In this document: one piece after another, positions 3,808 to 63,761 of the stretch
Numbering within the stretch: position 1 is the stretch's first letter
Layout of the letters: each line of letters starts with the position of its first letter
Assembly (NCBI GenBank): GCA_964625885.1
Contig: CAZVBM010000002.1
Span: 7,537-71,536, forward strand
Direction of reading: 5' to 3'
Source: an uncultured Candidatus Saccharibacteria bacterium
GTDB taxonomy: Bacteria > Patescibacteriota > Saccharimonadia > Saccharimonadales > Saccharimonadaceae
Length of the DNA: 64,000 nt
Notes under the pieces: generated by a model
Databases searched by the model: none
Seen by the model: only the letters and a program-made list of their open reading frames with translations
Told to the model about the DNA's origin: nothing
Made by a program: the position numbers and the translations under genes

Positions 3808-5274
3808 TTAAAAACTATCAGCTGGCGCCAGACTCTCCAGCCACAATTTTAATTCGCTGACATAAAACTCAGCTGATTCATTTTGCGCCAGAGATTCTAG
3901 CTCTTGCATAAAACTTGGCAACTGACACTGTAGACGTGCCGTGCGCCACTTTTCCCACCTTAGAGCTTCAGCTTCACTTAAACTGCGTGGGAAAGACCGA
4001 GCTTTGTAACCTAAGAACAGTTCTGGCAGGCGCTCATCACTAAACTCAGCTCGATATTCGCGTAGTTCATCGCTCGACAATCGACTAATCTCCTGCGTTC
4101 TTCGCCTATCTGAGTCATCTAAAAACGCATCGTATAATCGCTCTTCAGCAGGAGCTGGCGACTCATCAGTGAATTTCTGTTCGATTTGACGTTCTTTTAA
4201 GTCAGCTAATATATTAATGTTTTGAATCAGCTTTGGATTATCTTGCAAAGTTTTTACACGCTGTTTGATTGTTTCTGGATCAAGTTTCAGACGAGCATAA
4301 TCTTCTTTGCGCAGCACCGACATGGGCGCGACGGCCGGGCAGCGATTGTAGCGCAAAGTTTTAAAATAAACTCGCCTTTCGTTCACTTCTGCGTCATCAT
4401 TTTCGTCATCAGATTTGACATCTTTAAATTTTGAGTATTTAGCAAGAAAAGTGGCAAGTTCGGCAGGGGACTTGTCCAGCAAATCCGCCGGATCATAGCG
4501 CAAATTATAAACCATAATGTTGTTATTTTTACAATCAAAAATAGGGTAGGCGAGGGTAGTTTTTTCAAATTCTGATTCTAGTCGCCCACTGCTATACACA
4601 AACGGCGCTGGATGATCTAAATTAACTAGCTGCTGTACCGACTTTTTGTCGCGCATTTTTAGTAGATACCCCCACATTTTCGGGTCGGACTCTTTAATTA
4701 ACCGCCCCACCCCAATCAACGCCTCGACATCACTCAGAGCGTCATGCGCATGAGTATGCTCAAGATTGTTCAGCTTACTTAACAATTCCAGGCGGTTAGT
4801 TGCTTTGCCCTCGTCGTCAACCGGCCAGTTGATTTTGCCTGGCCGCACGGCGCGCGTAAAACGCACTACGTCGAGTAAGTCCCAACGACTACGACCGTCT
4901 TTATAGGCCCACTCATACGGATCACGAAAATTACGCCAAAATAGATGGCGAATGAACTCATCGTCAAAACGGACGTTATTATAGCCAACCACGATGGTGT
5001 TTGGCGTCAACATCTCGTTTAAAATTAGATCGCAAGCCTCAGCTTCGGTATAGCCTTCTTCAATGGTTTTTTGGGGCGTAATGCCCGTGACGCTGATCGC
5101 CATCGGACTAGGCAAAGTGTCTTCGCTCAGTTTAATTAAAAAATTATACGGCGCGCCAATTGGGTTTAAATCAAGATCGGTGCGCTGAGCGGCAAATTGC
5201 ATGATTCGATCAGAGCGTGGATTAAGTCCACTAGTTTCTAAATCGTAAAAAACAAAGCTTGGCTCAGGCATCAA
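3808..5274 (-). CDS. sbcB: Exodeoxyribonuclease I (SbcB)
   Basis: 488 aa. The N-terminal DEDDh exonuclease motif FVFYDLETSGLNP and the HDALSD motif match Exo I in length and architecture. Confidence 0.85.
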   Translation of the reverse strand: MMPEPSFVFYDLETSGLNPRSDRIMQFAAQRTDLDLNPIGAPYNFLIKLSEDTLPSPMAISVTGITPQKTIEEGYTEAEACDLILNEMLTPNTIVVGYNNVRFDDEFIRHLFWRNFRDPYEWAYKDGRSRWDLLDVVRFTRAVRPGKINWPVDDEGKATNRLELLSKLNNLEHTHAHDALSDVEALIGVGRLIKESDPKMWGYLLKMRDKKSVQQLVNLDHPAPFVYSSGRLESEFEKTTLAYPIFDCKNNNIMVYNLRYDPADLLDKSPAELATFLAKYSKFKDVKSDDENDDAEVNERRVYFKTLRYNRCPAVAPMSVLRKEDYARLKLDPETIKQRVKTLQDNPKLIQNINILADLKERQIEQKFTDESPAPAEERLYDAFLDDSDRRRTQEISRLSSDELREYRAEFSDERLPELFLGYKARSFPRSLSEAEALRWEKWRTARLQCQLPSFMQELESLAQNESAEFYVSELKLWLESLAPADSF

Positions 5275-52192: not shown

Positions 52193-53446
52193 ATGCATTT
52201 TAAACGCTGGCTCTCAATTAAAATCGGCAAGTTCCTGTTACGAGTGGGGCGGATCTACGGTGGCGGCTCAGCTCTGCCCGGTCTGATGATGGAAAAGATT
52301 TATCCAAATTTTGTTCAAGACTCCCTAGGTAACCTACCACTGGGAGTAGCAATCATATCTGGCACCAATGGTAAGACTTCAACCACCAAGGTTGTCAGTC
52401 AAATCTTAACCGAACAAGGGGTGTCAGTTTTTACTAATCCGTCCGGCAGCAATTTCTCACGCGGAGTAGCTTCAGCCTTACTCAAACAGTGCGATAGTCG
52501 TGGTCAAATAAAAGCGCAAATTGCTGTGCTAGAGCTAGATGAAGCTCACGCTGTCCATTTTATTAAGCAAGTTAAGCCAACATATAGCCTACTTCTAAAT
52601 ATCCTGCGCGACCAACTAGACCGCTTCGGCGAGATTGATAAGGTTACAGAGCTATTGAAACAAATTGCCGAGGCCACTACTAAAACCGTGGTAATTAATC
52701 GCGAAGACGCCCGCCTTAGGTCCATCGCTGTTAAACTACCAAACGCCAGCTACTACGGCTATAGCGACAAGGTGGGTGAGCAGCTGCAAAACCTTGACGA
52801 CCCACTAACCGCCGCCGAACTACCGCCAGCTGATGTTGAGCTAGTCTACCATGGCGCCGACAATGCCAATGTTTATCGCATCGGCCACGATAAAATCAGC
52901 ACCAAACCTAAAATGAGCGGACTTTATAATCACTTTAATATTGCTGGTGCCATTGCCCTAGTTCGCGTCATACTGGGCGACAAGCTTGACCTTGACCGGC
53001 TAGTTAATAGCCTAAAGAATCTGGAACCGGCGTTTGGACGAGGCGAAAAATTCCTAATCGGCGGACAAACCACAGAACTAATTTTAGTTAAGAATCCATC
53101 CGGTTTTCAGATGTCAATCAATGCGCTAGCCGACCCCAACGCCGCCATCATGATGGCCGTCAACGATAATTATGCCGACGGTCGTGACACTTCATGGTTA
53201 TGGGATGTTGATTTTACTAACCTGCCACAAAAGACCGTTAATGTCACGTCAGGCAGTCGCTGTTTCGACATGACCAACCGACTAAAATACGATCTAAAAA
53301 AAGTTAAAATTAGTCAGCCAGATTTAAAAATCGCGACCGCTGAACTTTTAACTATTAATCAGCCGCGCCAAATCTTTACTACCTACACCGCCATGATGCA
53401 GATTCGTAAATTTCTACTGGAAGCCGTTAAAGGAGAAAAACCATGA
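52193..53446 (+). CDS. murT: Lipid II isoglutaminyl synthase subunit MurT (Mur-ligase family)
   Basis: ISGTNGKTSTTK P-loop about 55 aa from the MHFKRW start, a Mur ligase middle domain and a DUF1727-like C-terminus. The track ORF starts at 52160. The internal ATG at 52193 gives the expected spacing from the N-terminus to the P-loop (inference). Confidence 0.85.
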   Translation: MHFKRWLSIKIGKFLLRVGRIYGGGSALPGLMMEKIYPNFVQDSLGNLPLGVAIISGTNGKTSTTKVVSQILTEQGVSVFTNPSGSNFSRGVASALLKQCDSRGQIKAQIAVLELDEAHAVHFIKQVKPTYSLLLNILRDQLDRFGEIDKVTELLKQIAEATTKTVVINREDARLRSIAVKLPNASYYGYSDKVGEQLQNLDDPLTAAELPPADVELVYHGADNANVYRIGHDKISTKPKMSGLYNHFNIAGAIALVRVILGDKLDLDRLVNSLKNLEPAFGRGEKFLIGGQTTELILVKNPSGFQMSINALADPNAAIMMAVNDNYADGRDTSWLWDVDFTNLPQKTVNVTSGSRCFDMTNRLKYDLKKVKISQPDLKIATAELLTINQPRQIFTTYTAMMQIRKFLLEAVKGEKP

Positions 53447-54168
53447 GCCAAGAACTGACCATACTACAACTTTATCCAGATGAACTAAACATCTACGGCG
53501 ATGGTGGCAATTTATTGGCCTTAAAGCGCCGACTAGAGTGGCGCGACATCACCGTCAATATCACGCACCACCAAATCGGTGATAATCCCAGCCAATACAA
53601 CCCAGACATTGTTATTGCTGGTGGCGGGCAAGACTCTAACCAAATTAAGATTGCCAGCGATCTAGAGCGGCTACGCGAACAACTGGCTGGCTGGATAGAG
53701 AGCGGCGTGCCATGCCTGATGATCTGCGGAGCTTATCAGATTTTAGGCAAACCTTATCAAAACAACGACGGTGTCACTATACCTGGGTTAAAAATAATTG
53801 ATATTGAAACGAGGGCTGGCAAAGAACGTATCGTCGGTAACCTGGTAATTGATAGCGACGATTTTGGCCGCATTGTTGGTTACGAGAACCACTCCGGACA
53901 AACCTACCTAGGCGCCGAACTCAAACCATTAGGTAGGGCTATAAAAGGCGGCGGTAACAACGGCCAAGACGGTACGGAAGGCTTACAATACAAGAATCTA
54001 ATCGGCACCTATTGCCATGGACCAATCCTGCCGAAAAACCCCAGAGTAGCAGATTTCCTGATTACCCAAGCTTTAAAACGAAAATACGGCGAAAATGTCC
54101 AATTATCGCCACTCGATGATACCGTTGAGCTAGCGGCCCAAAGCCAATCAGCCGATAGGCCACGCTAA
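53443..54168 (+). CDS. gatD: Glutamine amidotransferase GatD (CobB/CobQ-like), partner of MurT
   Basis: Overlaps the murT stop. Nucleophile context MICGAYQILG and the CHGP histidine motif. 241 aa. Confidence 0.85.
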   Translation: MSQELTILQLYPDELNIYGDGGNLLALKRRLEWRDITVNITHHQIGDNPSQYNPDIVIAGGGQDSNQIKIASDLERLREQLAGWIESGVPCLMICGAYQILGKPYQNNDGVTIPGLKIIDIETRAGKERIVGNLVIDSDDFGRIVGYENHSGQTYLGAELKPLGRAIKGGGNNGQDGTEGLQYKNLIGTYCHGPILPKNPRVADFLITQALKRKYGENVQLSPLDDTVELAAQSQSADRPR

Positions 54169-54174
54169 ATAAAA

Positions 54175-54200
54175 CAGACCGCCTATATAGGCGGTCTGTT
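54175..54200. terminator. Bidirectional terminator hairpin
   Basis: cagaccgcc-tatata-ggcggtctg between convergent genes. Confidence 0.65.
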
Positions 54201-54220
54201 CAAATTGTTTAACTTAAAAA

Positions 54221-54646
54221 CTATTTCTTATCTAGCTTATTGCTAATTTCGCCCAAGTAGCGGTAGATCTTGATAATGATCATCGCAAACTGGAAGGTGA
54301 TCCATAGCGCAATATTACCAACAACCAAGGTTAATAGGAACGCTAAGAAGCTAGCACTAATTAACTCGAAAGAGATTAAAGTGGTGAACAAAGCCATGGC
54401 TAGGTAGACTAATTTAAGAATCGCTTCAACCCGTAGACGCTTGAAGTTAACGAAGTCGTGTAACTTGACCGCAAAACCCTTAAACTTGTCACGTGACTGA
54501 CGAGCAAAGAAGAAATAGATTACTAAAGCACCAACAATCGCCAGAACCAGAGCGATAATACCCCAGATCGACAGCGCCGACAACAAGACCGGGCTTGAAG
54601 TGGTGACACGAGTGGTTGGATAATCTAAACCATAACTACTATACAT
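54221..54646 (-). CDS. Hypothetical polytopic membrane protein (141 aa)
   Basis: ORF with 3-4 hydrophobic helices and SD AAGGAAG. Confidence 0.6.
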   Translation of the reverse strand: MYSSYGLDYPTTRVTTSSPVLLSALSIWGIIALVLAIVGALVIYFFFARQSRDKFKGFAVKLHDFVNFKRLRVEAILKLVYLAMALFTTLISFELISASFLAFLLTLVVGNIALWITFQFAMIIIKIYRYLGEISNKLDKK

Positions 54647-54758
54647 ATCTTCCTTTCATTAAATTATTTTAATCATATGTTAATCTAATAATTTTTGCAA
54701 CTGGCAAAGCTCACAGCCTTGATTTTATTAGCAAAATCTACTATACTTTGTACCTAAT

Positions 54759-54835
54759 CGGGGCGTGGCGCAGCTTGGTAGCGCGCGCGGTTTGGGACCG
54801 TGAGGTCGCAAGTTCAAATCTTGTCGCCCCGACCA
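54759..54835 (+). tRNA. tRNA-Pro (anticodon UGG), CCA encoded
   Basis: Hand-folded: acceptor CGGGGCG/CGCCCCG, anticodon loop TTTGGGA, T-arm GCAAG-TTCAAAT-CTTGT. Confidence 0.9.
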
Positions 54836-55030
54836 AATAAAATTAGTCACCTTCATGGTGGCTGATTTTATTTGACCACGGAATGGTGAGTTGAACTTGC
54901 GACGTTTTGCGCCAGCAAAACAAGTCGCAAGTCGTGAAGTGAGTGAAGCGAGTGAAAAGCAGGCCGAAGGCTTGTTTTTCCGAGCGAACGAGCGGAAGAG
55001 CGAGTAATACGAGCGATAATCTTGTCCCAA
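54836..55030 (+). repeat. tRNA-Pro(UGG)-matched trailer unit
   Basis: Elements in order: a terminator-like hairpin at 54836-54876; ttgaacttgcgac (54891-54903), the inverse of the tRNA T-arm 5' side; the inner hairpin gttttgcgccagcaaaac; a direct copy gtcgcaagt (54924-32); a central hairpin GAAAAGC..G.TTTTTC (54954-80); and a 3' copy aatcttgtc (55018-26). Confidence 0.8.
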
Positions 55031-55036
55031 ATATTG

Positions 55037-55121
55037 TATAATTAGAGCATCTGAGCGAAAAGCGAAACCTTGTTTCAGCTTTTCCGAAGATGTGAATAAT
55101 TACACGTAGTATAATCAAGCT
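55037..55121 (+). promoter_or_regulatory. Conserved promoter/hairpin module upstream of the deacetylase gene (copy 2 of 2)
   Basis: Order of elements: TATAAT (55037-42), a hairpin catct...GAAAAGC..GCTTTTC...agatg (55048-55092), then TATAAT (55110-15), then the GTG 6 nt later. Confidence 0.65.
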
Positions 55122-56567
55122 GTGAGAAAGAAATTAGAACTCTTTAAACAAAGATTAGGCAGGCTAGTCAAAAACGACAAGACTCCCTACTTATTTATCC
55201 TTCTCAGTGGCGTGATTTTTCTAGCCCTGGCTTATATCTTTCAAGAAAATGGCATCGGTCTAACTAGTAGACAAGCCTACTTAAAAAACTCCGCCTATAA
55301 CGGCGTCAGCAGCAACTTTGTAACCGAACAAAAATGGCACCTTAAATCACAACGCGAATATCCAATTACTTCAAACAATGATGTCAACCAAAAACTGGCT
55401 CAAAAAATTAATAATTTCCATCAGGAGTATTTGAATCGTCTTAAAAACAAAACTCACAAATTGAGCTACGAAGAAAACACTAGCTTTAGCGTCACCTACA
55501 ATCGCAACCAACTGCTATCAATATCAATTAATTCCGTACAAGATTCAGACAATAAGACCGTCACTATGTTGACTGATTCGGAAACCTTTGACCTAACCAC
55601 CGGAAAGCCAATCGGCCTAGCCGACATATTTATCAACACTGATTGCTTACACTCCAGAGCTCTACCAGATCTACGCCAGCTGGTTGTCAAGGAAATTCAG
55701 CAAGCGAAGCCAGATTTTGATTCTAATAAGTTAAGCCAGACACTAACGGTAGAATTAGCTAATAATTTTCTAGTTCATCAAGATGGTAGTTTTCAATTTG
55801 AGTTTACGCCAGAAAAGCTTGGCGCCGATTTCAATGGCAGAATAGTCGTAAACTTGCCGGCAACCCGCTACTTATCAAGCATAAAACCAGATCTAGCCAA
55901 GAGGTTATTTGACCAAGCGGTCATCGACCTCAACTCACCCGAGAGTCCGCAAAACCGATCGGGATTTTGCAGCAAGAACCCATGCGTCGCCCTGACTTTC
56001 GACGACGGACCGAGCGACCAAACTCCCCAAATTCTAGATATTCTGCAAAAATACAATGTCAAAGCTACTTTCTTTGTTTTGGGTAAAAAAGCTCACGATC
56101 ACCCTGACATTATTAAGCGACAAATTGATGAGGGACATCAAGTAGGCTATCACGGCTGGAACCACACCGCCTTTAACCGATTGAGGCCTGAGCAAATCCA
56201 TGACGAACTCAATCGCACCGACGAGATTTTTCGAGCTAATAATTACATCTCAAGAGTAGCTCGACCACCTTATGGAACATTAAATCAAAAATCCATTGAT
56301 GTTTTACGCGATCGCAATCAAGATATTATCCTATGGTCGGTTGACCCGCGCGACTGGGATGTCAAGGACGCCGAGCAAATCTACAACCGCGTCATAACCG
56401 CCAGCCACAACGGCGCCATTATTTTACTCCACGATATTTACCCCAGCACCGCTGATGCAGTCGAGCCAATTATTAATTATTTTCAAAACAACGGCTTTTA
56501 CTTAGTAACCGCCAATACACTACTTGGCGACGTGCCACCATCTGGCAGTATTTATCGCCGACGCTAG
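55122..56567 (+). CDS. Membrane-anchored polysaccharide/peptidoglycan deacetylase (NodB domain) with an N-terminal DUF3298/RsiV-like region
   Basis: TM helix (YLFILLSGVIFLALAYIF). NodB motifs TFDDGP, HGWNH and LLHD. Only a GTG start is available. Confidence 0.82.
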   Translation: MRKKLELFKQRLGRLVKNDKTPYLFILLSGVIFLALAYIFQENGIGLTSRQAYLKNSAYNGVSSNFVTEQKWHLKSQREYPITSNNDVNQKLAQKINNFHQEYLNRLKNKTHKLSYEENTSFSVTYNRNQLLSISINSVQDSDNKTVTMLTDSETFDLTTGKPIGLADIFINTDCLHSRALPDLRQLVVKEIQQAKPDFDSNKLSQTLTVELANNFLVHQDGSFQFEFTPEKLGADFNGRIVVNLPATRYLSSIKPDLAKRLFDQAVIDLNSPESPQNRSGFCSKNPCVALTFDDGPSDQTPQILDILQKYNVKATFFVLGKKAHDHPDIIKRQIDEGHQVGYHGWNHTAFNRLRPEQIHDELNRTDEIFRANNYISRVARPPYGTLNQKSIDVLRDRNQDIILWSVDPRDWDVKDAEQIYNRVITASHNGAIILLHDIYPSTADAVEPIINYFQNNGFYLVTANTLLGDVPPSGSIYRRR

Positions 56568-56589
56568 TTCTATGATAAAATTAGAAAAT

Positions 56590-56665
56590 CGGGATGTGGC
56601 GCAGTTGGTAGCGCGCACGGCTGGGGGCCGTGAGGTCGCCTGTTCAAGTCAGGTCATCCCGACCA
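56590..56665 (+). tRNA. tRNA-Pro (anticodon GGG), CCA encoded
   Basis: Hand-folded: acceptor CGGGATG/CATCCCG, anticodon loop CTGGGGG, T-arm GCCTG-TTCAAGT-CAGGT. Confidence 0.88.
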
Positions 56666-56747
56666 TCCTCCTTCGCTGTCTTCTGGACAGCTACGGAGGA
56701 TGCAGTCCGTAGCCTTTGGCGAAGGAGTGCATTTTATCAACACGCAT

Positions 56748-56824
56748 CGGGGCGTGGCGCAGCTTGGTAGCGCGCACCGTTCGGGACGGTGAGGTCGCCT
56801 GTTCAAATCAGGTCGCCCCGACCA
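56748..56824 (+). tRNA. tRNA-Pro (anticodon CGG), CCA encoded
   Basis: Hand-folded: acceptor CGGGGCG/CGCCCCG, anticodon loop TTCGGGA, T-arm GCCTG-TTCAAAT-CAGGT. Confidence 0.9.
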
Positions 56825-57282
56825 TAAAAATTGACTCACCTTTTGGTGGGTCAATTTTTATCTGTTGCGCGCAACATGTTTGACTGGCGACCTTTTGCGT
56901 AGCAAAAATTGGTCGCCTGTCGTGGAGTGAACGAAGCGAAGAAAAGCGCGTAGCATTTTTCTGAGCGAGTGAACGGAGGAGCGAAACGAAGTGGAGCGAT
57001 AATCAGGCCTGATACTATCGTAATATTGGTGGCTGATTTTATTTGGCCACGGAGTGGTGAGTTGAACAGGCGTGCCTGTTCGCGAATGAACTCAGCCTAC
57101 ATACGATCATGTGACCGGTTTAATAATTACTTTGAAGGGAATCTCGCAGTTACGACGGAGAGCTTAGCGCAGACGGCCCTGTAACGACAGGCGCCGTCAA
57201 GTGTCCCTGAAAAGTAATTATTAAATATCAGGTCGTATTAGAAATAGACAAGCAGGGTGGACGAAGCCCATAATCAGGCCCT
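56825..57282 (+). repeat. Three tandem tRNA-Pro(CGG)-matched units. The middle one carries the type-2 structured insert.
   Basis: Partial T-loop/T-stem 3' copies lie at 57001-57009 (aatcaggcc), 57225-57235 (atatcaggtcg) and 57270-57281 (ataatcaggccc). T-stem 5' copies are ggtcgcctgt (56911-20) and gcctgttcg (57074-82). Confidence 0.8.
57117..57235 (+). ncRNA. Candidate structured element (type-2 insert), copy 1. Strand and RNA status unproven.
   Basis: A 21-bp closing helix (ttaataattactttgaaggga / tccctgaaaagtaattattaa, with 2 mismatches) encloses a core that is about 85% identical to 61247-61310. Confidence 0.5.
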
Positions 57283-58756
57283 AAAACAACTTCTCACCGT
57301 AAATTTCATTTTCTAACTCATCATGATCATGACACCAAACCTGCGCAATAAACTGACTTTTCTTAGCTAATTTATCATTGTTCCACGGTGGCAAGAAACA
57401 TTCCGGACACCAATGCCCAGTTTTTAAGACTAAATACGGACTGGCCTCAAATTCGTGACCTTCGGAACAAACCCATTTCAATTTAGTTTGCAAATCGCCC
57501 TTTTTCATTTTATTAGACAAACAGTCGCCACCACGAAACTGAGCGGCTCGCTTCATATCAGCCAAATCTAACTGGTCTAACGGTTTTGTTTCATCATAAC
57601 CATGGTCTAATTTTGAATGCGCTTCATCGTGCACTAAACTAAAACCATCCCAGCCACCAGGAATCGCCTGCCATTTTTCAACCGAGCCAAAGAAAGCCTT
57701 AAATTTAGCCACTTCACCATGTTTTAGCCAATAGAGTGGCGCATTGGGCCGGTTGGCACGCGGTAACATAAAGAATCGCTTTACCAAACTAGCTGGGATA
57801 TATTTCAGTAATTTTAATTTGAGCGGTAGATCTCGTTTAATCTCTGCCAAAACATCATCAACCGTTTCGGTTCGAAAGTCTAAATAATTATTTAAATCAT
57901 CGGAATCCAAATACCACATGCCATGAAAATTACGCAGCGCATACCAATTTGGCTGTTCTAATGATTTAAGATCCACCCCTAACATACGATAAAACTTGTC
58001 TAAAAATTCAAAGGCCGTCAAGCGATTGGCCGCGCCACCACCAATATTATAGACTCGGCTCCAGAATCCACTAGGTAGCTCTTTGGTGCAGAGATTGTAT
58101 AGCAGCCGACCAGAATCACGCGCCGTAATCCACTCCAAGCTATTGTTGAGTGGCTGATGATAACTAATACCATCGTCCACCGCAAAAATATCTTTGTGTA
58201 TAATGCCCGTCTGACGGAGCGACACCCACTGCTTTATACCAGATTCAATCACATAACGTTCAGCTGCCACTTTGGAAATGGAATAATAGTCAAAAGCACT
58301 CGGTAGTAGTGGATCGCCGACTCGCCCCCAGTGGACTGGAATTGGCCGATTGCCATACTGACCAATACTACCAATGTAAACAAATTTAGTTGTTTCACCC
58401 TGCCCAAGTTCTATCACCGCATCGACTAAGTTTTTTGTGCCACCAAAATTAATTCGCCAGGCTAGTTTTGGACGCGTATCGGCCATCGGCGAGACCAACG
58501 CCGCAATATGCAAAACAATATCTATCCCAGATACAGCCTTTTTAACATCGTCATAATTGGTTAAATCACCCCAAACAATTTTAATATCTAGATTATCTTG
58601 ATAGGGCGCCAAGACCTTCTTGTCTGACTCACTTGGCAAAGAGAATATTACCAAATCAAATTGGTCAGTCTTTTCAGCCAATTGACGCAAAGCCTCACGC
58701 CCCATATTGCCAGTCGCGCCGGTTAAAAGAACCTTGGTTTTTTTAGCTTGACTCAT
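57281..58756 (-). CDS. NAD-dependent epimerase/dehydratase (extended SDR) with a C-terminal Cys-rich, zinc-ribbon-like domain
   Basis: Rossmann motif LLTGATGNMG and catalytic YSISK (YxxxK). C-terminal WVCSEGHEFE...GHWCPEC. Confidence 0.75.
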   Translation of the reverse strand: MSQAKKTKVLLTGATGNMGREALRQLAEKTDQFDLVIFSLPSESDKKVLAPYQDNLDIKIVWGDLTNYDDVKKAVSGIDIVLHIAALVSPMADTRPKLAWRINFGGTKNLVDAVIELGQGETTKFVYIGSIGQYGNRPIPVHWGRVGDPLLPSAFDYYSISKVAAERYVIESGIKQWVSLRQTGIIHKDIFAVDDGISYHQPLNNSLEWITARDSGRLLYNLCTKELPSGFWSRVYNIGGGAANRLTAFEFLDKFYRMLGVDLKSLEQPNWYALRNFHGMWYLDSDDLNNYLDFRTETVDDVLAEIKRDLPLKLKLLKYIPASLVKRFFMLPRANRPNAPLYWLKHGEVAKFKAFFGSVEKWQAIPGGWDGFSLVHDEAHSKLDHGYDETKPLDQLDLADMKRAAQFRGGDCLSNKMKKGDLQTKLKWVCSEGHEFEASPYLVLKTGHWCPECFLPPWNNDKLAKKSQFIAQVWCHDHDELENEIYGEKLF

Positions 58757-58831
58757 TACACTTAATTGTACATCAAAATTTTAACCCAAAGAAAAATCGG
58801 GCTTAACGCCCGATTTGGAGAAATAATTTGC

Positions 58832-59110
58832 TTAAATGGCAAGTTCTAAATCCGAAATGTACGCACCAATTTCGGCAGACTGCTTTTCAAGACTTTCTAG
58901 CTCACTCTCGACGTTGTCGGTAGAGCGACCATCATTCTGCAACTCGGCAAGCAACTCGCACTGCTTGACGTACCTGTTGTGGACGCACTCCAGTGCCTCA
59001 TTAGCTTCCCTTAGTTTGCGATCCCTAAACTCGACAGCCTCATGGTCCAAGCCACGAGAGAGGTAATCGGCTATCATGGTTAACGCTCTTGTGTCTATAT
59101 CATATTTCAT
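58832..59110 (-). CDS. Small hypothetical helical protein (92 aa)
   Basis: SD GGAGGG, its own TATAAT and its own terminator (58793-58818). Heptad-like charged sequence. Confidence 0.55.
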   Translation of the reverse strand: MKYDIDTRALTMIADYLSRGLDHEAVEFRDRKLREANEALECVHNRYVKQCELLAELQNDGRSTDNVESELESLEKQSAEIGAYISDLELAI

Positions 59111-59205
59111 AACATAGCCCTCCTTTTTGTACTAGCACCCTTACGAGCGCCTCATCCTACAATTATAGCATAAAAATGTATAAATATCAAATAAAAGCCG
59201 GGTTT

Positions 59206-59448
59206 TTACCCGGCATTGAGCATTTCGCCAAAAGTTTCTAGCTCGGCAATAAAATGAGAAATAGTTTCAATTTTAGCCTCAATACTCTTACGATCTTTTG
59301 CTGAAGCGGTTTCATATTGTTCGTCTAGTTTTTTTAACTCAGCTCGACTCTCGCCAAGGACCCGATTCATCAAATCTCGTGCCTTGTCCCGCTCATCCAA
59401 AAGAAACAGTTTGTTTAGTTCGATCCTAACGTCATCACGATACAGCAA
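59206..59448 (-). CDS. Small hypothetical helical protein (80 aa, TTG start). Possible paralogue of the 58832 ORF.
   Basis: SD GGAGGGA before the TTG. It shares the leader motif ggtgctagtaYaa with the neighbouring small gene. Its own terminator (aaagccgggtttttacccggc) overlaps the 3' end. Confidence 0.5.
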   Translation of the reverse strand: MLYRDDVRIELNKLFLLDERDKARDLMNRVLGESRAELKKLDEQYETASAKDRKSIEAKIETISHFIAELETFGEMLNAG

Positions 59449-59533
59449 TCAAACTCCCTCCTTCGCTTATACTAGCACCAAAAAGCGCCACAACCATCAT
59501 ACAGTCATAGCGCTTTTATATCAAGCAGGCTAT

Positions 59534-61045
59534 TTATTTGGCGTATTCTTCGGCGCGAGTTTCGCGCACGACATTAACCTTAATCACACCCGGATATTGC
59601 ATAGTGCTTTCGATTTTTATAGCAATATCGCGCGCCAATTTAATAGCTGACAAATCATCGACTTTTTCCGGTTTAACAATCACACGTAGCTCGCGACCGG
59701 CTGAGATCGCATAAGACTTCTCAACACCAGGAAAGGCGTTGGCAACATTTTCCAAGTCGCGCATGCGCTCCACAAAGTTTTCACTTGAAATGTTGCGTGC
59801 GCCTGGCCGAGCGGCTGAAACCGCATCAACTACACGTACCACCAGAGCTTCTGTTGTAGTAGCTTCGATATCCTCGTGGTGCGCTTCCATGGCGTGCGCT
59901 ATCTCTTTTGACATGCCATATTTACGAGCTAATTCAGCGCCAATTACATGGTGCTTGCCTTCAATCTTATGCGTCACCGCCTTGCCAATATCGTGGAATA
60001 GGGCGGCTGTCTTGGTGATTTTGACATCAGCACCAATTTCCTCAGCAATTTGCCCGGCTAATTGGGCCATTTCAATTGAGTGCTTCAAAACGTTTTGGCC
60101 ATAAGACGTACGATATTTTAATTCACCGAGCAGGTGCAGCATCTCGCGCGGCATGCCAATCAATCCAACCTCACGCGCTGCGTCTTCACCAGCCCTCACA
60201 ATTTCTTTATCAATTTCTTTTTCAGCTTTAACAACTACTTCTTCAATGCGAGAGGGGTTAATGCGCCCATCTTTCATCAAGAGCTCAAGCGCTAGACGAG
60301 CTACTTGGCGACGCACTGGATCAAACGAGCTCAACACTACCATGCCAGGGGTTTCGTCGATTAAAATGTCAACACCGGTGGCGCGTTGCAAGGTCTGGAT
60401 GTTTCGCCCCTCCTTACCAATAATTCGCCCTTTCATTTCATCATCCGGCAACTCTACTGACGTTACTGTGTGTTCAGAAGTGACTTCTGAGCTCATGCGC
60501 TCCATAGCGCCTAATAAAATCATCTGAGCACTCTCTTCGGCCGCCTCAGTCGCTTCGTTCTTTAATTTACTAATCAAACCAGTCAAGTCGTCTTTGACGT
60601 TCTTTTCAGTCATGTCAAGCAGCTTTTGACGTGCCTCGTCCTTAGTCAATTTAGCAATTTTCTCCAATTTTTCTTCTTGCTTTTGGCGAATATCTAAAAC
60701 CGCATTCTTTAGATCTTCCAACTCTTGTGTCTGTTGGCGCAAAGAATCCATCTTTTCATCGGCCTGCTCGTTCTTTTTATCAAGTAGAGCCTCACGCTCA
60801 GTTAGGCGACTTTCGACGCGGTCCAGTTCTTTGCGACGACTAGCCTCATCACGCTTAGCCTGTTCTAAAACCTTATCGGCGTTACTTTGAGCTTCTTTGG
60901 CTAATTTGCGCGCCTTATCTTCGGCTTCTTTTACTAAATCGTCAGCCTTTTGCTGGTGTTTTTTCGCCTTGGTCGTCAAGACACCATAAGCCGCGCCACC
61001 ACCAATAGCTAGGCCAGCTAGCGAGGCAATCACTATTTCTATCAT
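59534..61045 (-). CDS. rny: Ribonuclease Y
   Basis: N-terminal TM, long coiled coil, KH domain (IGKEGRNIQ) and HD domain (LFHDIGKA). Confidence 0.95.
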   Translation of the reverse strand: MIEIVIASLAGLAIGGGAAYGVLTTKAKKHQQKADDLVKEAEDKARKLAKEAQSNADKVLEQAKRDEASRRKELDRVESRLTEREALLDKKNEQADEKMDSLRQQTQELEDLKNAVLDIRQKQEEKLEKIAKLTKDEARQKLLDMTEKNVKDDLTGLISKLKNEATEAAEESAQMILLGAMERMSSEVTSEHTVTSVELPDDEMKGRIIGKEGRNIQTLQRATGVDILIDETPGMVVLSSFDPVRRQVARLALELLMKDGRINPSRIEEVVVKAEKEIDKEIVRAGEDAAREVGLIGMPREMLHLLGELKYRTSYGQNVLKHSIEMAQLAGQIAEEIGADVKITKTAALFHDIGKAVTHKIEGKHHVIGAELARKYGMSKEIAHAMEAHHEDIEATTTEALVVRVVDAVSAARPGARNISSENFVERMRDLENVANAFPGVEKSYAISAGRELRVIVKPEKVDDLSAIKLARDIAIKIESTMQYPGVIKVNVVRETRAEEYAK

Positions 61046-61220
61046 AAAACCCTTTCATCTGGGCGATCGTTTTCATCGCCTGTAAAAATATTCTTAAATC
61101 CGCGTCTTCGTCAAAAAATGGTCACTAAACGCTAATTAGATTGTAGCACAAAGCCATTTAGCGCGCGACTAATTATTAAAACCGACAACTAGTTTGCGTC
61201 ATTGTCCTTTATTCCGTACG

Positions 61221-61335
61221 GCCAGTTCAACAACTCACCAGCAGACAATCTCGCAGTTACGACGAGAGTTTAGCGCGAGCAGCCCTGTGACGACAGGCGC
61301 TGCCGACGCGTGTCTGATGGGGAGTTGTTGAACAT
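61221..61335 (+). ncRNA. Candidate structured element (type-2 insert), copy 2, embedded in an orphan tRNA-Pro-like T-arm. Strand unproven.
   Basis: ggccagttcaa | insert | catcaggcc. The closing helix gttcaacaactcaccagcagac / gtctgatggggagttgttgaac is unrelated in sequence to that of copy 1, while the core is conserved. Confidence 0.5.
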
Positions 61336-61490
61336 CAGGCCGTGGGTTAGCCTGGATTGGGGCTTTCAACCGACCAGCTCTCCAGAGACGTTTGACCACG
61401 CCCGTCGTTACGGGGTGGTCTGCACTTCGCTGTCGGTCGTAACCGCCAGAGCCTCTGTCGAGCTGGTTGGTTTACGCCCACTAGGTGACA

Positions 61491-61865
61491 CTATTTACGT
61501 GGTTGGGTGATTACCGCGTCCTGATAATAAATCGGCGTGATTACTTGTGGTGTTGCCTGCTTTTTCAGCAACTCATCACCATCAGCGCGCCAATTTTCGC
61601 CACCGGAACCAACAATTGGAATTTGCAAGCTATCAGCCAAAGTATTCGCCACCGTAATACCGATGCGAAGTGATGTATAGCTACCAGGCCCACGAAACAC
61701 CACAATACCATCAAGATCTGACCACCCCCTACCCTCGCCCCCTAACGACTGTTGTAAAAATTGCAACATATTTTTAGAAAGCTCACGACCAAACTGTTGC
61801 TCGAATAATTTATCGTCGAGCCACAAGCGACACCAGTCATCGGCGGTTTGTAGATATAATTTCAC
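61491..61865 (-). CDS. tsaB: tRNA t6A biosynthesis protein TsaB, N-terminal-domain-only short form
   Basis: GPGSYTSLRIGITVANTLA motif. 124 aa, versus roughly 230 aa for the usual protein (from memory). Overlaps the tsaE stop. Confidence 0.75.
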   Translation of the reverse strand: MKLYLQTADDWCRLWLDDKLFEQQFGRELSKNMLQFLQQSLGGEGRGWSDLDGIVVFRGPGSYTSLRIGITVANTLADSLQIPIVGSGGENWRADGDELLKKQATPQVITPIYYQDAVITQPRK

Positions 61866-62284
61866 GCTTTTAGTTCCCCTAGCGTTACCTTGCGGCCATC
61901 TACGGTGTAGTCAATCATCAGGCGGTAGCGATTTAAGGGCAAGACCGCGCCGATCGTCTCGCCCCACTCCACTACCACCGAAGTTAGATTATCATTCAAG
62001 TCTTCAGCCAATTCCTGATTCATCACACCGCCCTCATTTAGACGATAAAAGTCAAAATGCGACAACATCTTGCCGTCATCTAGACGATACTGATTATTAA
62101 TCGTAAAACTCGGACTAGTGACTTCGTCGATTGAGCCCAGCCCCTTAGCCAAACCTTTTACAAAAGTTGTCTTACCAGCACCAACATCGCCGACTAGTTC
62201 TAAACAAAATGGCCAAGTTAGTTCCCTAGCCAAGCGCTCACCTAGCGCCACCATCTCCGCATCGCTTTTGACTTCAAATTCCAT
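61862..62284 (-). CDS. tsaE: tRNA t6A biosynthesis ATPase TsaE
   Basis: P-loop GDVGAGKTTFVKG, SPSFT and YHFDFYRL-like (SHFDFYRL) motifs. Confidence 0.9.
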   Translation of the reverse strand: MEFEVKSDAEMVALGERLARELTWPFCLELVGDVGAGKTTFVKGLAKGLGSIDEVTSPSFTINNQYRLDDGKMLSHFDFYRLNEGGVMNQELAEDLNDNLTSVVVEWGETIGAVLPLNRYRLMIDYTVDGRKVTLGELKA

Positions 62285-62306
62285 ATTACCTTAATTATAC
62301 ATGATT

Positions 62307-63761
62307 CTATTCAATCACATTGAACGCCTTGAGCGCCTCCGCTAGCTTGACATCACGCTGATTGCACCACGCCATATAAGCCGTCGCCGCGATAATCACC
62401 GCGTAAGCTAAAATTACTTGCCATAAATTAACCGTCACATCAATCTGCGCCAGTGGCAGGCCAGCAAACCAATTAGTTACGCCGATGACGTAATTTAATA
62501 CCAATTGCAGTGGCCAGACCAAAATCGCACCAACACCCGGTATAGCGCCAAACAACGACACTAACAAACTAAGTAGCATCAGAAGCGACGCCACTGGCAC
62601 GACTAGTAAATTAGTTAGCAAAGCCACCGTTGATAATTTACCAAAAAAGAAAATACTAATAGGTAAAGTAGCGATTTGCGCGGCGATTGATTCGGTCAGG
62701 AGCTGTTTTACAAAACCCAATTTAGTTTTGCCCCAAAAGTATTGACGCATAATCGGCCCAATTATTAATACGCCAGCGAAAGCCCCAAACGATAGATAAA
62801 ACGACGCATTGCCCCAGAGATAGAGTGGGTTCATTAGGACAGTTAGACCCAAAACCAGCAGTAAGATTCGCCCCGCCGAACTACGCCGACCATAATACCA
62901 ACCAACTAGCGAGATTAAACTGACTAGCCCTGCCCGCGTCATGCTTGATGACGCGCCAGTTATCATCGTAAATAGCCCAATCGCCGCCAAACCCAAAGCC
63001 AACGCCCAACGACGCGATCGCTTCTCACCCAACCTTTTGCCAGCTCGCACCACTGTCGTTAGGTGAAAACCGCTTGCCACTACCAGATGAGTCAGGCCAA
63101 CAATTTGCAGATTGAGCGTGAAGTTAGCCGGCAACTCACGTCGTTTGCCCGTTAAAAAAGCGCTGGCTAGGCTAGATTGCAAGGGTGACAAGTGATAATC
63201 CAAGTTATCAGTGAAAAAATTCCGCATTGCTAAACCCCAGCTGGTACTAGCCGCTACCTGCCCTAGTCGAGCATTTTTGAAGGCTACCTGATAGCCCGCC
63301 AGACCCTCAGACACCACTCCCGCAATCTCCAATCGATCACCCCGCTTCGCCACGCTCGACTGGCGTGACATCACTAAAATATCGCCGGGCAATTTCCTAC
63401 CATAGACCTCAATCTGATCCAGTCGATACACATACGCCCCCGACGTAGTTTTAGCGACATCGTCAAACAAAACTCCTGACAGCACCACCTCTTTATTCAC
63501 TAATTGGTCATACGCCTGTAATTGCTGACGAAATGACGTCGCATAACGCCAGCCTAGCAAAAAACCAACCAAAACCAAGATTAAAAGTGGCCAAATGGTT
63601 GTTTTAGTGGTCTTTATTAACACTGCTAACACGACCAGCAAAATTATCAAAACTACCCAAGAAACGTCCAGCCAGATAAAATATGCCGTCGCTACCCCAA
63701 GCGTAGTGCCCATCATCAACATGACTGGCCACCAAGACGGATGAAACTTCCGGCGCTGCAT
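62307..63761 (-). CDS. comEC: ComEC/Rec2-family competence membrane channel (no beta-lactamase domain)
   Basis: 484 aa with about 10 TM helices. N-terminal OB-like region plus the Competence domain pattern (GLTHLVVASGFHL). Confidence 0.8.
   Translation of the reverse strand: MQRRKFHPSWWPVMLMMGTTLGVATAYFIWLDVSWVVLIILLVVLAVLIKTTKTTIWPLLILVLVGFLLGWRYATSFRQQLQAYDQLVNKEVVLSGVLFDDVAKTTSGAYVYRLDQIEVYGRKLPGDILVMSRQSSVAKRGDRLEIAGVVSEGLAGYQVAFKNARLGQVAASTSWGLAMRNFFTDNLDYHLSPLQSSLASAFLTGKRRELPANFTLNLQIVGLTHLVVASGFHLTTVVRAGKRLGEKRSRRWALALGLAAIGLFTMITGASSSMTRAGLVSLISLVGWYYGRRSSAGRILLLVLGLTVLMNPLYLWGNASFYLSFGAFAGVLIIGPIMRQYFWGKTKLGFVKQLLTESIAAQIATLPISIFFFGKLSTVALLTNLLVVPVASLLMLLSLLVSLFGAIPGVGAILVWPLQLVLNYVIGVTNWFAGLPLAQIDVTVNLWQVILAYAVIIAATAYMAWCNQRDVKLAEALKAFNVIE

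Follow-up and report, generated by a model that had tools for sequence, protein, structure and literature searches.

Rickettsia palindromic elements (RPEs) are dispersed palindromes of which about half lie in frame within unrelated genes (Ogata et al. 2000, 2002, as summarised in PMC10969869). The bacterial MITEs (miniature elements that are transposable and have inverted repeats) ERIC, Correia, BOX and Nezha have also been found in genes (PMC10969869), and repetitive extragenic palindromes (REPs), which are stem-loops of 20-40 bp that carry a GTAG/CGTC tag directly 5′ of the stem and are mobilised by REP-associated tyrosine transposases (RAYTs) of the Y1 type, are known inside genes from several other bacteria (PMC3733652). 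Some REP families have no known transposase, and REPs form strand-specific hairpins of single-stranded DNA (ssDNA) (PMC3733652). This work reports a structured element of about 110-125 nucleotides (nt) that occurs in three copies, W1 to W3, in a 64-kb stretch of contig CAZVBM010000002.1 from an uncultured Saccharibacteria bacterium, the whole of which is called the window below. By analogy, it appears closest in behaviour to the RPEs and closest mechanistically to the REPs. We consider it probable that W1-W3 are copies of a dispersed, non-autonomous, selfish and RPE-like palindromic element, so far found only in Saccharibacteria, and the family is best filed as a new one among the RPE/REP-type palindromic repeats that depend on structure; literature searches brought up no account of elements of this type from Saccharibacteria or Patescibacteria.

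The three window copies are covariance-model matches at 57116-57229 (W1, plus strand), 61223-61336 (W2, plus strand) and 61361-61476 (W3, minus strand). A previous sequence-only reading had described W1 and W2 as the two copies of a structured element, and their places are borne out; an 18-mer (AATCTCGCAGTTACGACG) and a 19-mer (GCCCTGTRACGACAGGCGC) are each found exactly twice in the window, where 0.03 occurrences would be expected. The copy number has to be raised, however, because W3 is a diverged third copy (75 bits, E 3e-22) with compensatory changes of its own, one of them in the tip (CCCGT-AACG-ACGGG; U-A to C-G). Two covariance models were run without filters, the second built from all 58 copies described below, and neither revealed an additional copy in the window, intact or decayed. 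The cores of W1 and W2 each lie between the arms of an inverted repeat of 22-23 bp that is 91% complementary, and both copies fold with z-scores of about -6 against shuffled sequence. These closing helices had been called completely different in sequence; they are indeed long, but the 5′ arms of W1 and W2, counted from the sequences, are identical at 11/22 positions and the 3′ arms at 13/22, and the differences are mostly paired T-A to C-G transitions. Therefore, the arms are homologous and diverged by compensatory change. The two pair-preserving double substitutions noticed in the inner stem are real in the alignment, with GACGGC/GCCGTC in W1 against GCAGC/GCTGC in W2 (G-C to A-T and A-T to G-C).

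A two-block pattern scan of the genome collection gave eight loci, all from Saccharibacteria (Nanosyncoccus, Nanosyncoccaceae, and ruminant-jejunum and termite-gut genomes), while a slightly relaxed pattern gave 35 metagenome loci (numbered, like the others, with the prefix L), of which the covariance model confirmed all but L021, that is 34. The first model was built from 11 sequences and run on the window and the loci, and this search for homologues, which the sequence-only reading had proposed, found 58 copies, some of them without the search pattern, each about 100-125 nt long and all folding as hairpins. Every named source of the family is a member of the Saccharibacteria; the two-block pattern had no match in viral contigs, and blastn with W2 had none in the phage and plasmid collections. 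One locus, L008, is syntenic with window positions 53357-62880, the genes being about 76-83% identical (one segment 69%), which assigns the window to a related member of the Nanosyncoccaceae.

Every copy has one architecture, in which a long outer stem (P1) and two inner arms (P2 and P3) surround a three-way junction. P1 is a hairpin stem of 20-30 bp, in which a tandem G.A/A.G internal loop often lies close to the junction; P2 closes the near-invariant loop GCAGUUACGACGA with a helix of 3 bp; and P3 has a freely covarying lower part, a bulged C and the tip CCYGU-RACG-ACRGG. In the 58-sequence alignment, which was fitted to the model, standard pairs fill 90.1% of the cells against 37-53% when the 3′ partners are slid, both-side changes occur in 22/25 pairs, and compensatory cells number 370 against 107 in column shuffles, with none of 500 shuffles reaching the observed value. 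The invariance of the P2 loop and the tip is partly by construction, because the pattern scans demanded these motifs; among those copies that only the model recovered, however, C-G to U-A covariation is seen in the tip and the P2 loop can diverge. The outer stems are conserved within subfamilies only, and the interior is conserved family-wide. Compensatory change in a DNA palindrome is also possible through templated repair between its arms, and therefore the covariation alone is no proof of an RNA function.

The two strands are not equivalent. On the plus strand, defined as the orientation that reads GCAGTTACGACG, G.U pairs outnumber A.C pairs by 48 to 27 (p 0.02) and G.A/A.G mismatches are frequent, which on the complement would be pyrimidine mismatches. 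The plus strand is also the more stable in 45/53 distinct copies, with means of -52.7 against -47.0 kcal/mol (p 1e-8). The plus strand thus folds systematically better, and therefore the single-stranded form of one strand, as RNA or ssDNA, is under constraint. The suggestion of a functional RNA or ssDNA fold made from the sequence alone stands as to a conserved, covarying fold with one favoured strand in 58 homologues, but not as to a conventional RNA gene or ribozyme. Rfam 15, ribozyme families included, gave no match to the element in the region 56500-61700, whether the gathering threshold was applied or E values up to 10 were admitted. The sequence-only reading had matched the core to none of RNase P, SRP, tmRNA, 6S RNA, group I or II intron domains, and hammerhead or twister ribozyme cores. 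Hammerhead, twister and other ribozymes were rejected, as the junction strands are not conserved and Rfam gave no match, and a retron non-coding RNA was rejected, there being no reverse transcriptase nearby and copies lying inside genes.

More than half of the family resides in coding sequence. Among the 53 robust non-redundant copies outside the window, 29 are spanned by long stop-free open reading frames (ORFs), called as such when the frame extends at least 40 codons on either side of the copy, and often it extends for hundreds. The Pfam domains that flank or cross the element identify the hosts as housekeeping genes, namely LeuRS-like, ValRS, PheT (2 copies), TopA (2 copies), TsaD, UvrB, Clp ATPase, Der/EngA (2 adjacent copies), RecX, TatD, pseudouridine synthase, DnaX and an RNase HII-YraN read-through. 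Relative to the solved structure 3zet_B, the TsaD insert comes after residue 121 and before residue 124. The in-gene copies lie sense (19) or antisense (10) to the host gene and use at least five reading frames, and even orthologous sites differ in frame (pseudouridine synthase in L027 and L032; TopA in L012 and L043) or in orientation (LeuRS in L003 and L005). Therefore, it is the nucleotide sequence and the fold that are conserved, not a peptide. The encoded peptides matched no Pfam or NCBIfam family, and a search of the protein collection with a 47-residue alignment of these peptides gave only five word-sharing candidates and no match.

That all 29 in-gene copies are open and in frame, whatever the frame or orientation, would be needless if they were removed or skipped, and the open frames are strong indirect evidence that these copies are translated. 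The same observation bears on the possibility that the element is an intervening sequence, either a small intron or a bypass element like the yeast mitochondrial 'byps', including an insertion in a tRNA T-loop. Its position inside essential genes, its compact and stable hairpin with a conserved core and the T-arm-like flanks of the window subfamily would agree with such a reading; however, no gene was found split by a copy, the intergenic copies that were checked lie between distinct and complete genes, W1 and W2 have stop codons in all six frames, no tRNA is predicted around W1, W2 or W3, and no ribozyme or intron family matches. We therefore regard an intervening sequence as highly improbable.

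Two of the in-gene insertions have features of their own. On the contig of L017 (L002 9-881), RNase HII and YraN (UPF0102) form one uninterrupted ORF with the element as the linker, which is either a true fusion protein or a read-through made by insertion. In the TsaD of L006 (4771-6261), residues 204-270 comprise about 67 extra residues besides the 37 matched by the covariance model, and the stretch 'sgmtdked' resembles the translation of another copy (SGMTDEER in L027), so that these residues are probably decayed tandem insertions at a hot spot.

Beside genes the copies are oriented differently. Intergenic copies no more than 60 nt from a gene 3′ end are sense in 2 cases and antisense in 11, and many intergenic copies adjoin 3′ ends. 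This location, together with the strong covariation and the conserved unpaired nucleotides, the strand-specific stability with its tandem G.A loop and G.U pairs, and the conservation of orthologous copies above that of neighbouring genes, would be expected of a host-beneficial structured RNA, be it a small RNA or a cis-acting one such as a 3′-end or terminator hairpin, an mRNA-stability element or a protein-binding module, and one orthologous pair lies shortly before a start codon, its 3′ arm covering the ribosome-binding site. However, the copies show no consistent gene association, more than half of them are inside coding sequence, with 10 of those 29 antisense to the mRNA, and the copies beside 3′ ends are mostly antisense to the adjoining gene, so the strand that folds well is usually not in that transcript. 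A promoter and terminator scan around the window copies found no signal above shuffled expectation, and the lack of an Rfam match also speaks against this explanation, which we judge unlikely.

The orthologous pair upstream of a start codon (L004 6913-7023 and L042 4027-4134) is in sense orientation and directly precedes the frame that begins MSKKIFYDDDA..., and the 3′ arm of its outer stem overlies the ribosome-binding site AAAGGGA or AAAGGA. An effect of this pair on translation initiation could be envisaged.

The family is dispersed, with recent multiplication in one genome. One termite-gut metagenome has, on its contigs, five copies that by eye are near-identical along all 124 nt of the unit, including the stems, and that sit at unrelated intergenic sites. 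Orthologous sites in related genomes differ in occupancy: TopA site 1 carries the element in L012 and lacks it in L043, PheT site 1 carries it in L009 and is reduced to a short remnant in L037, and L042 has an extra copy where L004 holds a remnant. In the window, W3 lies to the right of W2, and the corresponding copy in L008 lies on the left. Dispersal, polymorphism at orthologous sites, multiplication and in-frame insertion in unrelated genes are the behaviour of selfish palindromic repeats such as the RPEs, and the dismissal of a mobile element in the sequence-only reading is not supported.

Several observations nevertheless weigh against a selfish element. No transposase, integrase or reverse-transcriptase family recurs in the 41 loci with their roughly 300 kb of flanking DNA, and clustering of all ORFs in the loci shows that only housekeeping families recur. 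Neither a target-site duplication nor a fixed target sequence was definable: the ends of the near-identical copies show no evident direct repeat, the filled and empty pairs are too diverged for exact boundaries, and no flank is common across subfamilies. The outer stems vary from one subfamily to another, where ordinary MITEs have conserved terminal repeats; the case for translation of the in-gene copies comes from open frames only; and the orientation bias in genes (19:10) is opposite to that beside 3′ ends (2:11; Fisher p 0.006). Furthermore, the conservation of orthologous copies equals or exceeds that of their flanks, and in several cases it is above that of the flanking coding sequence: W2 and its ortholog L008:6455-6568 are 95.6% identical against 81-83% for rny and tsaB-tsaE, the copies of L011 and L036 100% against 92-94% for the flanking genes, and the copies of L009 and L037 81% against 76-79% for the flanking coding sequence. 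This is not the neutral decay of dead selfish DNA and points to a host-level constraint or to gene conversion. Taken together with the orientation biases, gene conversion among copies, selection against half-decayed palindromes and a co-opted function are each possible.

Conservation above that of the flanking genes could also reflect a host function at the DNA level, with the folded single strand serving as a chromosomal site to which a protein of replication or repair, or a nucleoid protein, would bind, for example as a priming or single-strand initiation signal, or as a gyrase or nucleoid-protein site of the kind proposed for REPs and bacterial interspersed mosaic elements (BIMEs). The fold is specific to one strand whether or not that strand is transcribed, the element is conserved whether it lies sense or antisense to genes, and a copy is kept in the rnpA-dnaA spacer of two species, all of which would suit such a site. 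Against it stand a low and uneven copy number, with three copies, all inside 5 kb, in the 64-kb window, the gain and loss of sites between close relatives, the mixed orientation of copies within single contigs and the fact that no candidate binding protein was found, and we hold a DNA-level function to be quite unlikely. The spacer copies just mentioned (L001 4416-4527 and L014 4369-4480) are 87.5% identical in the two different genomes, and the rnpA-dnaA spacer is the expected region of the replication origin.

Based on these findings, we propose that the selfish palindromic element, which remains the reading we prefer, may operate as follows. One strand would fold into the P1 hairpin that ends in the three-way junction with the P2 and P3 arms, and the family would multiply, or would once have multiplied, within genomes by landing at unrelated sites. 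Copies that come to lie between genes would persist as hairpins beside gene ends, while those landing in genes would persist only where the frame stays open and would then be translated as an insertion of 35-40 residues. It is most likely at the conserved junction core that the folded single strand is recognised by a protein, which would copy or maintain the element, and ssDNA at the replication fork, as for transposases of the HUH/Y1 type, is favoured over an RNA intermediate.

More tentatively, and as a minority possibility, the invariant core of the three-way junction could be the substrate of a new structure- and strand-specific machinery of the Saccharibacteria, serving either DNA mobilisation or a co-opted host function. 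In the first form, mobilisation might target hairpin loops, at which three weak hints exist, namely the T-arm-like base of one subfamily, a 31-nt piece nested in a P3 tip loop and the complementary flanks of some young copies. As to the last, complementarity of the flanks, as expected of insertion into pre-existing hairpins, is at best suggestive, with p 0.017 to 0.1 in 3/5 young copies and none in 2/5; as to the second, two copies in L007 and L008 are chimeras of different subfamilies whose P3 tip loop holds the foreign piece, about 31 nt long. In the second form, a co-opted host function would explain both the conservation of orthologous copies and the opposite orientation biases.

The element can be set beside several known systems. 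RPEs, compared by description, are likewise dispersed and hairpin-capable repeats of about 100-150 bp in a reduced genome; about half of the copies sit in frame within unrelated housekeeping genes, where read-through yields an extra peptide, and no dedicated transposase is known (PMC10969869). The hairpin repeat length and the in-frame gene insertion (29/53) recur in the present family, although none of the window copies is in a gene, and a pseudouridine synthase gene is among the hosts of both (PMC3733652). However, Rickettsia belongs to a different phylum, and the likeness drawn here is one of behaviour; RPEs are described as encoding a conserved peptide, whereas the Saccharibacteria element uses both orientations and at least five frames, shows no conserved peptide in one frame, and combines a three-way-junction core, whose loops are invariant, with covarying stems that evolve fast.

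REPs, with REP doublets (REPINs) and BIMEs, are structure-dependent and strand-specific and are thought to act as folded ssDNA, and they occur mostly at gene ends and sometimes inside replication and repair genes (PMC3733652). Inverted neighbouring pairs are common among them, and here W2/W3 and several locus pairs are arranged in this way. The element differs in being branched and 110-125 nt long, where REP units are simple stem-loops with a foot tag; the CGTC of the complementary strand is found in two loops, those of P2 and of the P3 tip, and not 5′ of a stem, so that membership in the CGTC-tagged REPs was rejected, and no RAYT-like gene was seen in the loci.

MITEs share with the element that they are small, non-autonomous, hairpin-forming and dispersed, with occasional in-frame fusions (PMC10969869). 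What defines them, however, is the conservation of their terminal inverted repeats, together with duplication of the target site and a parent insertion sequence (IS), while the present family has variable termini that are not conserved across copies and a conserved interior, and neither a duplication nor a parent IS was found in the loci. Of the traits of IS200/IS605-type ssDNA elements and their ORF-less derivatives, strand-specific folding is present (45/53 copies; G.U above A.C). Such elements have a fixed target of 4-5 nt immediately 5′ of the left end and a nearby Y1 transposase gene; here no flank is common across subfamilies and no such gene recurs in the loci.

The attC sites of integrons are recognised as a folded single strand of one strand with extrahelical bases, structure counting above sequence, and are 57-141 nt long. 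The element resembles them in its one-strand fold, in the conservation of structure above sequence and in size; however, in attC the base (R''/R' boxes) is conserved and the centre variable, the opposite of the arrangement here, attC is not found inside genes, and no integron integrase or cassette array is present. An attC identity was rejected, since RYYYAAC...GTTRRRY boxes occur only in W2 and L008 (GTTCAAC...GTTGAAC).

All three window copies are intergenic. W1, with its base helix GACCGG/CAGGTC, spans 57113-57234 on the plus strand; it scores 103 bits with the covariance model and 87 bits under model R2, and its fold has -47 kcal/mol and z -6.0. It is flanked by the tRNA-Pro cluster and by the epimerase-like ORF 57281-58756 on the other strand, and ends 55 nt from the 3′ end of that ORF. 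Its P1 arms lie at 57119-57140 and 57204-57225 (inverted repeat I4, 22 nt, 91%) and include the tandem G.A/A.G internal loop; the conserved P2 loop GCAGTTACGACGG, closed by CTC/GAG, lies at 57146-57158 and corresponds to the near-invariant columns 33-41 and 57-61 of the 58-sequence alignment; and the P3 hairpin GACGGC-CCTGT-AACG-ACAGG-C(bulge)-GCCGTC lies at 57172-57198 (fold and alignment).

W2, with its base helix GGCCAG/CAGGCC, spans 61220-61341 on the plus strand (covariance model 107.6 bits) and lies, as W3 does, between a short tsaB-like ORF (61491-61865) and rny (59534-61045), both on the minus strand; W2 is antisense to both. Its P1 arms are at 61225-61247 and 61311-61333 (inverted repeat I3, 23 nt, 91%), the conserved P2 loop GCAGTTACGACG, seen in the repeat count and the alignment, is at 61253-61264, and the P3 hairpin GCAGC-CCTGT-GACG-ACAGG-C(bulge)-GCTGC is at 61279-61303 (fold and alignment). 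W3, on the minus strand, has the P2 loop GCGGTTACGACCGA and the P3 hairpin GACCAC-CCCGT-AACG-ACGGG-C-GTGGTC and folds at -67.6 kcal/mol.

The tsaB-like ORF encodes 124 residues that cover only positions 27-86 of the TsaD/TsaB Pfam profile and is equally long in L008; W3 begins 18 nt past the stop codon of the window ORF. A 2.4-kb window segment (57084-59535, against L008 4113-4604) is missing from the syntenic L008 and holds W1, the 491-residue epimerase-like ORF, which has a weak C-terminal match to the DUF4379 zinc finger, and a 92-residue ORF; L008 has at this position a B module, described below, and unrelated sequence.

The tRNA-Pro-like T-arm context pointed out from the sequence alone is real in W1, W2, L007 and L008 but local to this subfamily: the base helix GGCCRG/CAGGYC with a T-loop-like sequence is common to these four and absent from the other copies, about 50 in number. 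In W2 the T-arm-like flanks are GGCCAGTTCAA...ATCAGGCCG, against GCCTGTTCAAATCAGGTCG in tRNA-Pro. W1 lies downstream of three tRNA-Pro genes (54759, 56590 and 56748) predicted by ARAGORN, and ARAGORN and the Rfam tRNA model found only these three intact genes upstream and no complete tRNA around the copies, so that an interrupted tRNA gene at W1, W2 or W3 was rejected. The whole-window Rfam search at the gathering threshold missed two of the three (56590-56665 and 56748-56824), a filter artefact of the large search, and they were recovered at 58-62 bits by ARAGORN and a regional Rfam search. The likeliest reading is that the ancestor of the subfamily was embedded in a T-arm-like hairpin, which has been carried along since.

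Further repeats accompany these tRNA genes. A second repeat of about 85 nt, here called the B module, has purine-rich GAGCGAA-like motifs around a small central hairpin and has no stable fold; it occurs in the window at 54916-55030 and 56908-57012, with a remnant at about 57240-57280, and in L008 at 3937-4035 and 4103-4190. It sits between T-stem halves that match the T-arm of the adjacent tRNA-Pro itself, beside tRNA-Pro(UGG) as GTCGCAAG|TCG...CGAT|AATCTTGTC and beside tRNA-Pro(CGG) as GTCGCCTG|TCG...CGAT|AATCAGGCC, as if a T-arm had been duplicated and the module inserted in its T-loop. The module's 3′ motif GAGCGATAATC was found, among the fetched loci, only in L008.

Downstream of the tRNA-Pro genes, at window positions 54856-54901 and 57027-57072 (repeat D2, 91%), 54888-54903 and 57058-57072, there are sequences antisense to the T-arm and the 3′ half of the same tRNAs (I1, I9 and I17), each of which matches the T-stem variant of a nearby tRNA, so the 3′ region of the tRNA could pair with its own trailer. 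A hairpin module at 56666-56735, between tRNA-Pro(GGG) and tRNA-Pro(CGG), folds well (z -5.1), and its 29-nt piece GCAGTCCGTAGCCTTTGGCGAAGGAGTGC recurs (25/29) in the P3 tip loop of the two chimeric copies, L007:7496-7638 and L008:6283-6428, both on the minus strand.

The Saccharibacteria live as ultra-small epibionts, and their genomes are among the most reduced and densely packed of all bacteria. If the proposed selfish element is correct, the family would be a second and independent case of the 'protein-coding palindromes' known from Rickettsia, and would suggest that protein-coding palindromes go with genome reduction, with the unusual trait that a nucleic-acid fold with an invariant junction core and a preferred strand is conserved instead of a peptide. 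The inserts inflate and blur the annotation of core genes in metagenome-assembled genomes, as in the apparent RNase HII-YraN fusion. With this fold and its preferred strand, the family offers a tractable route to the protein that would recognise it, in Saccharibacteria that are cultivable and now genetically tractable.

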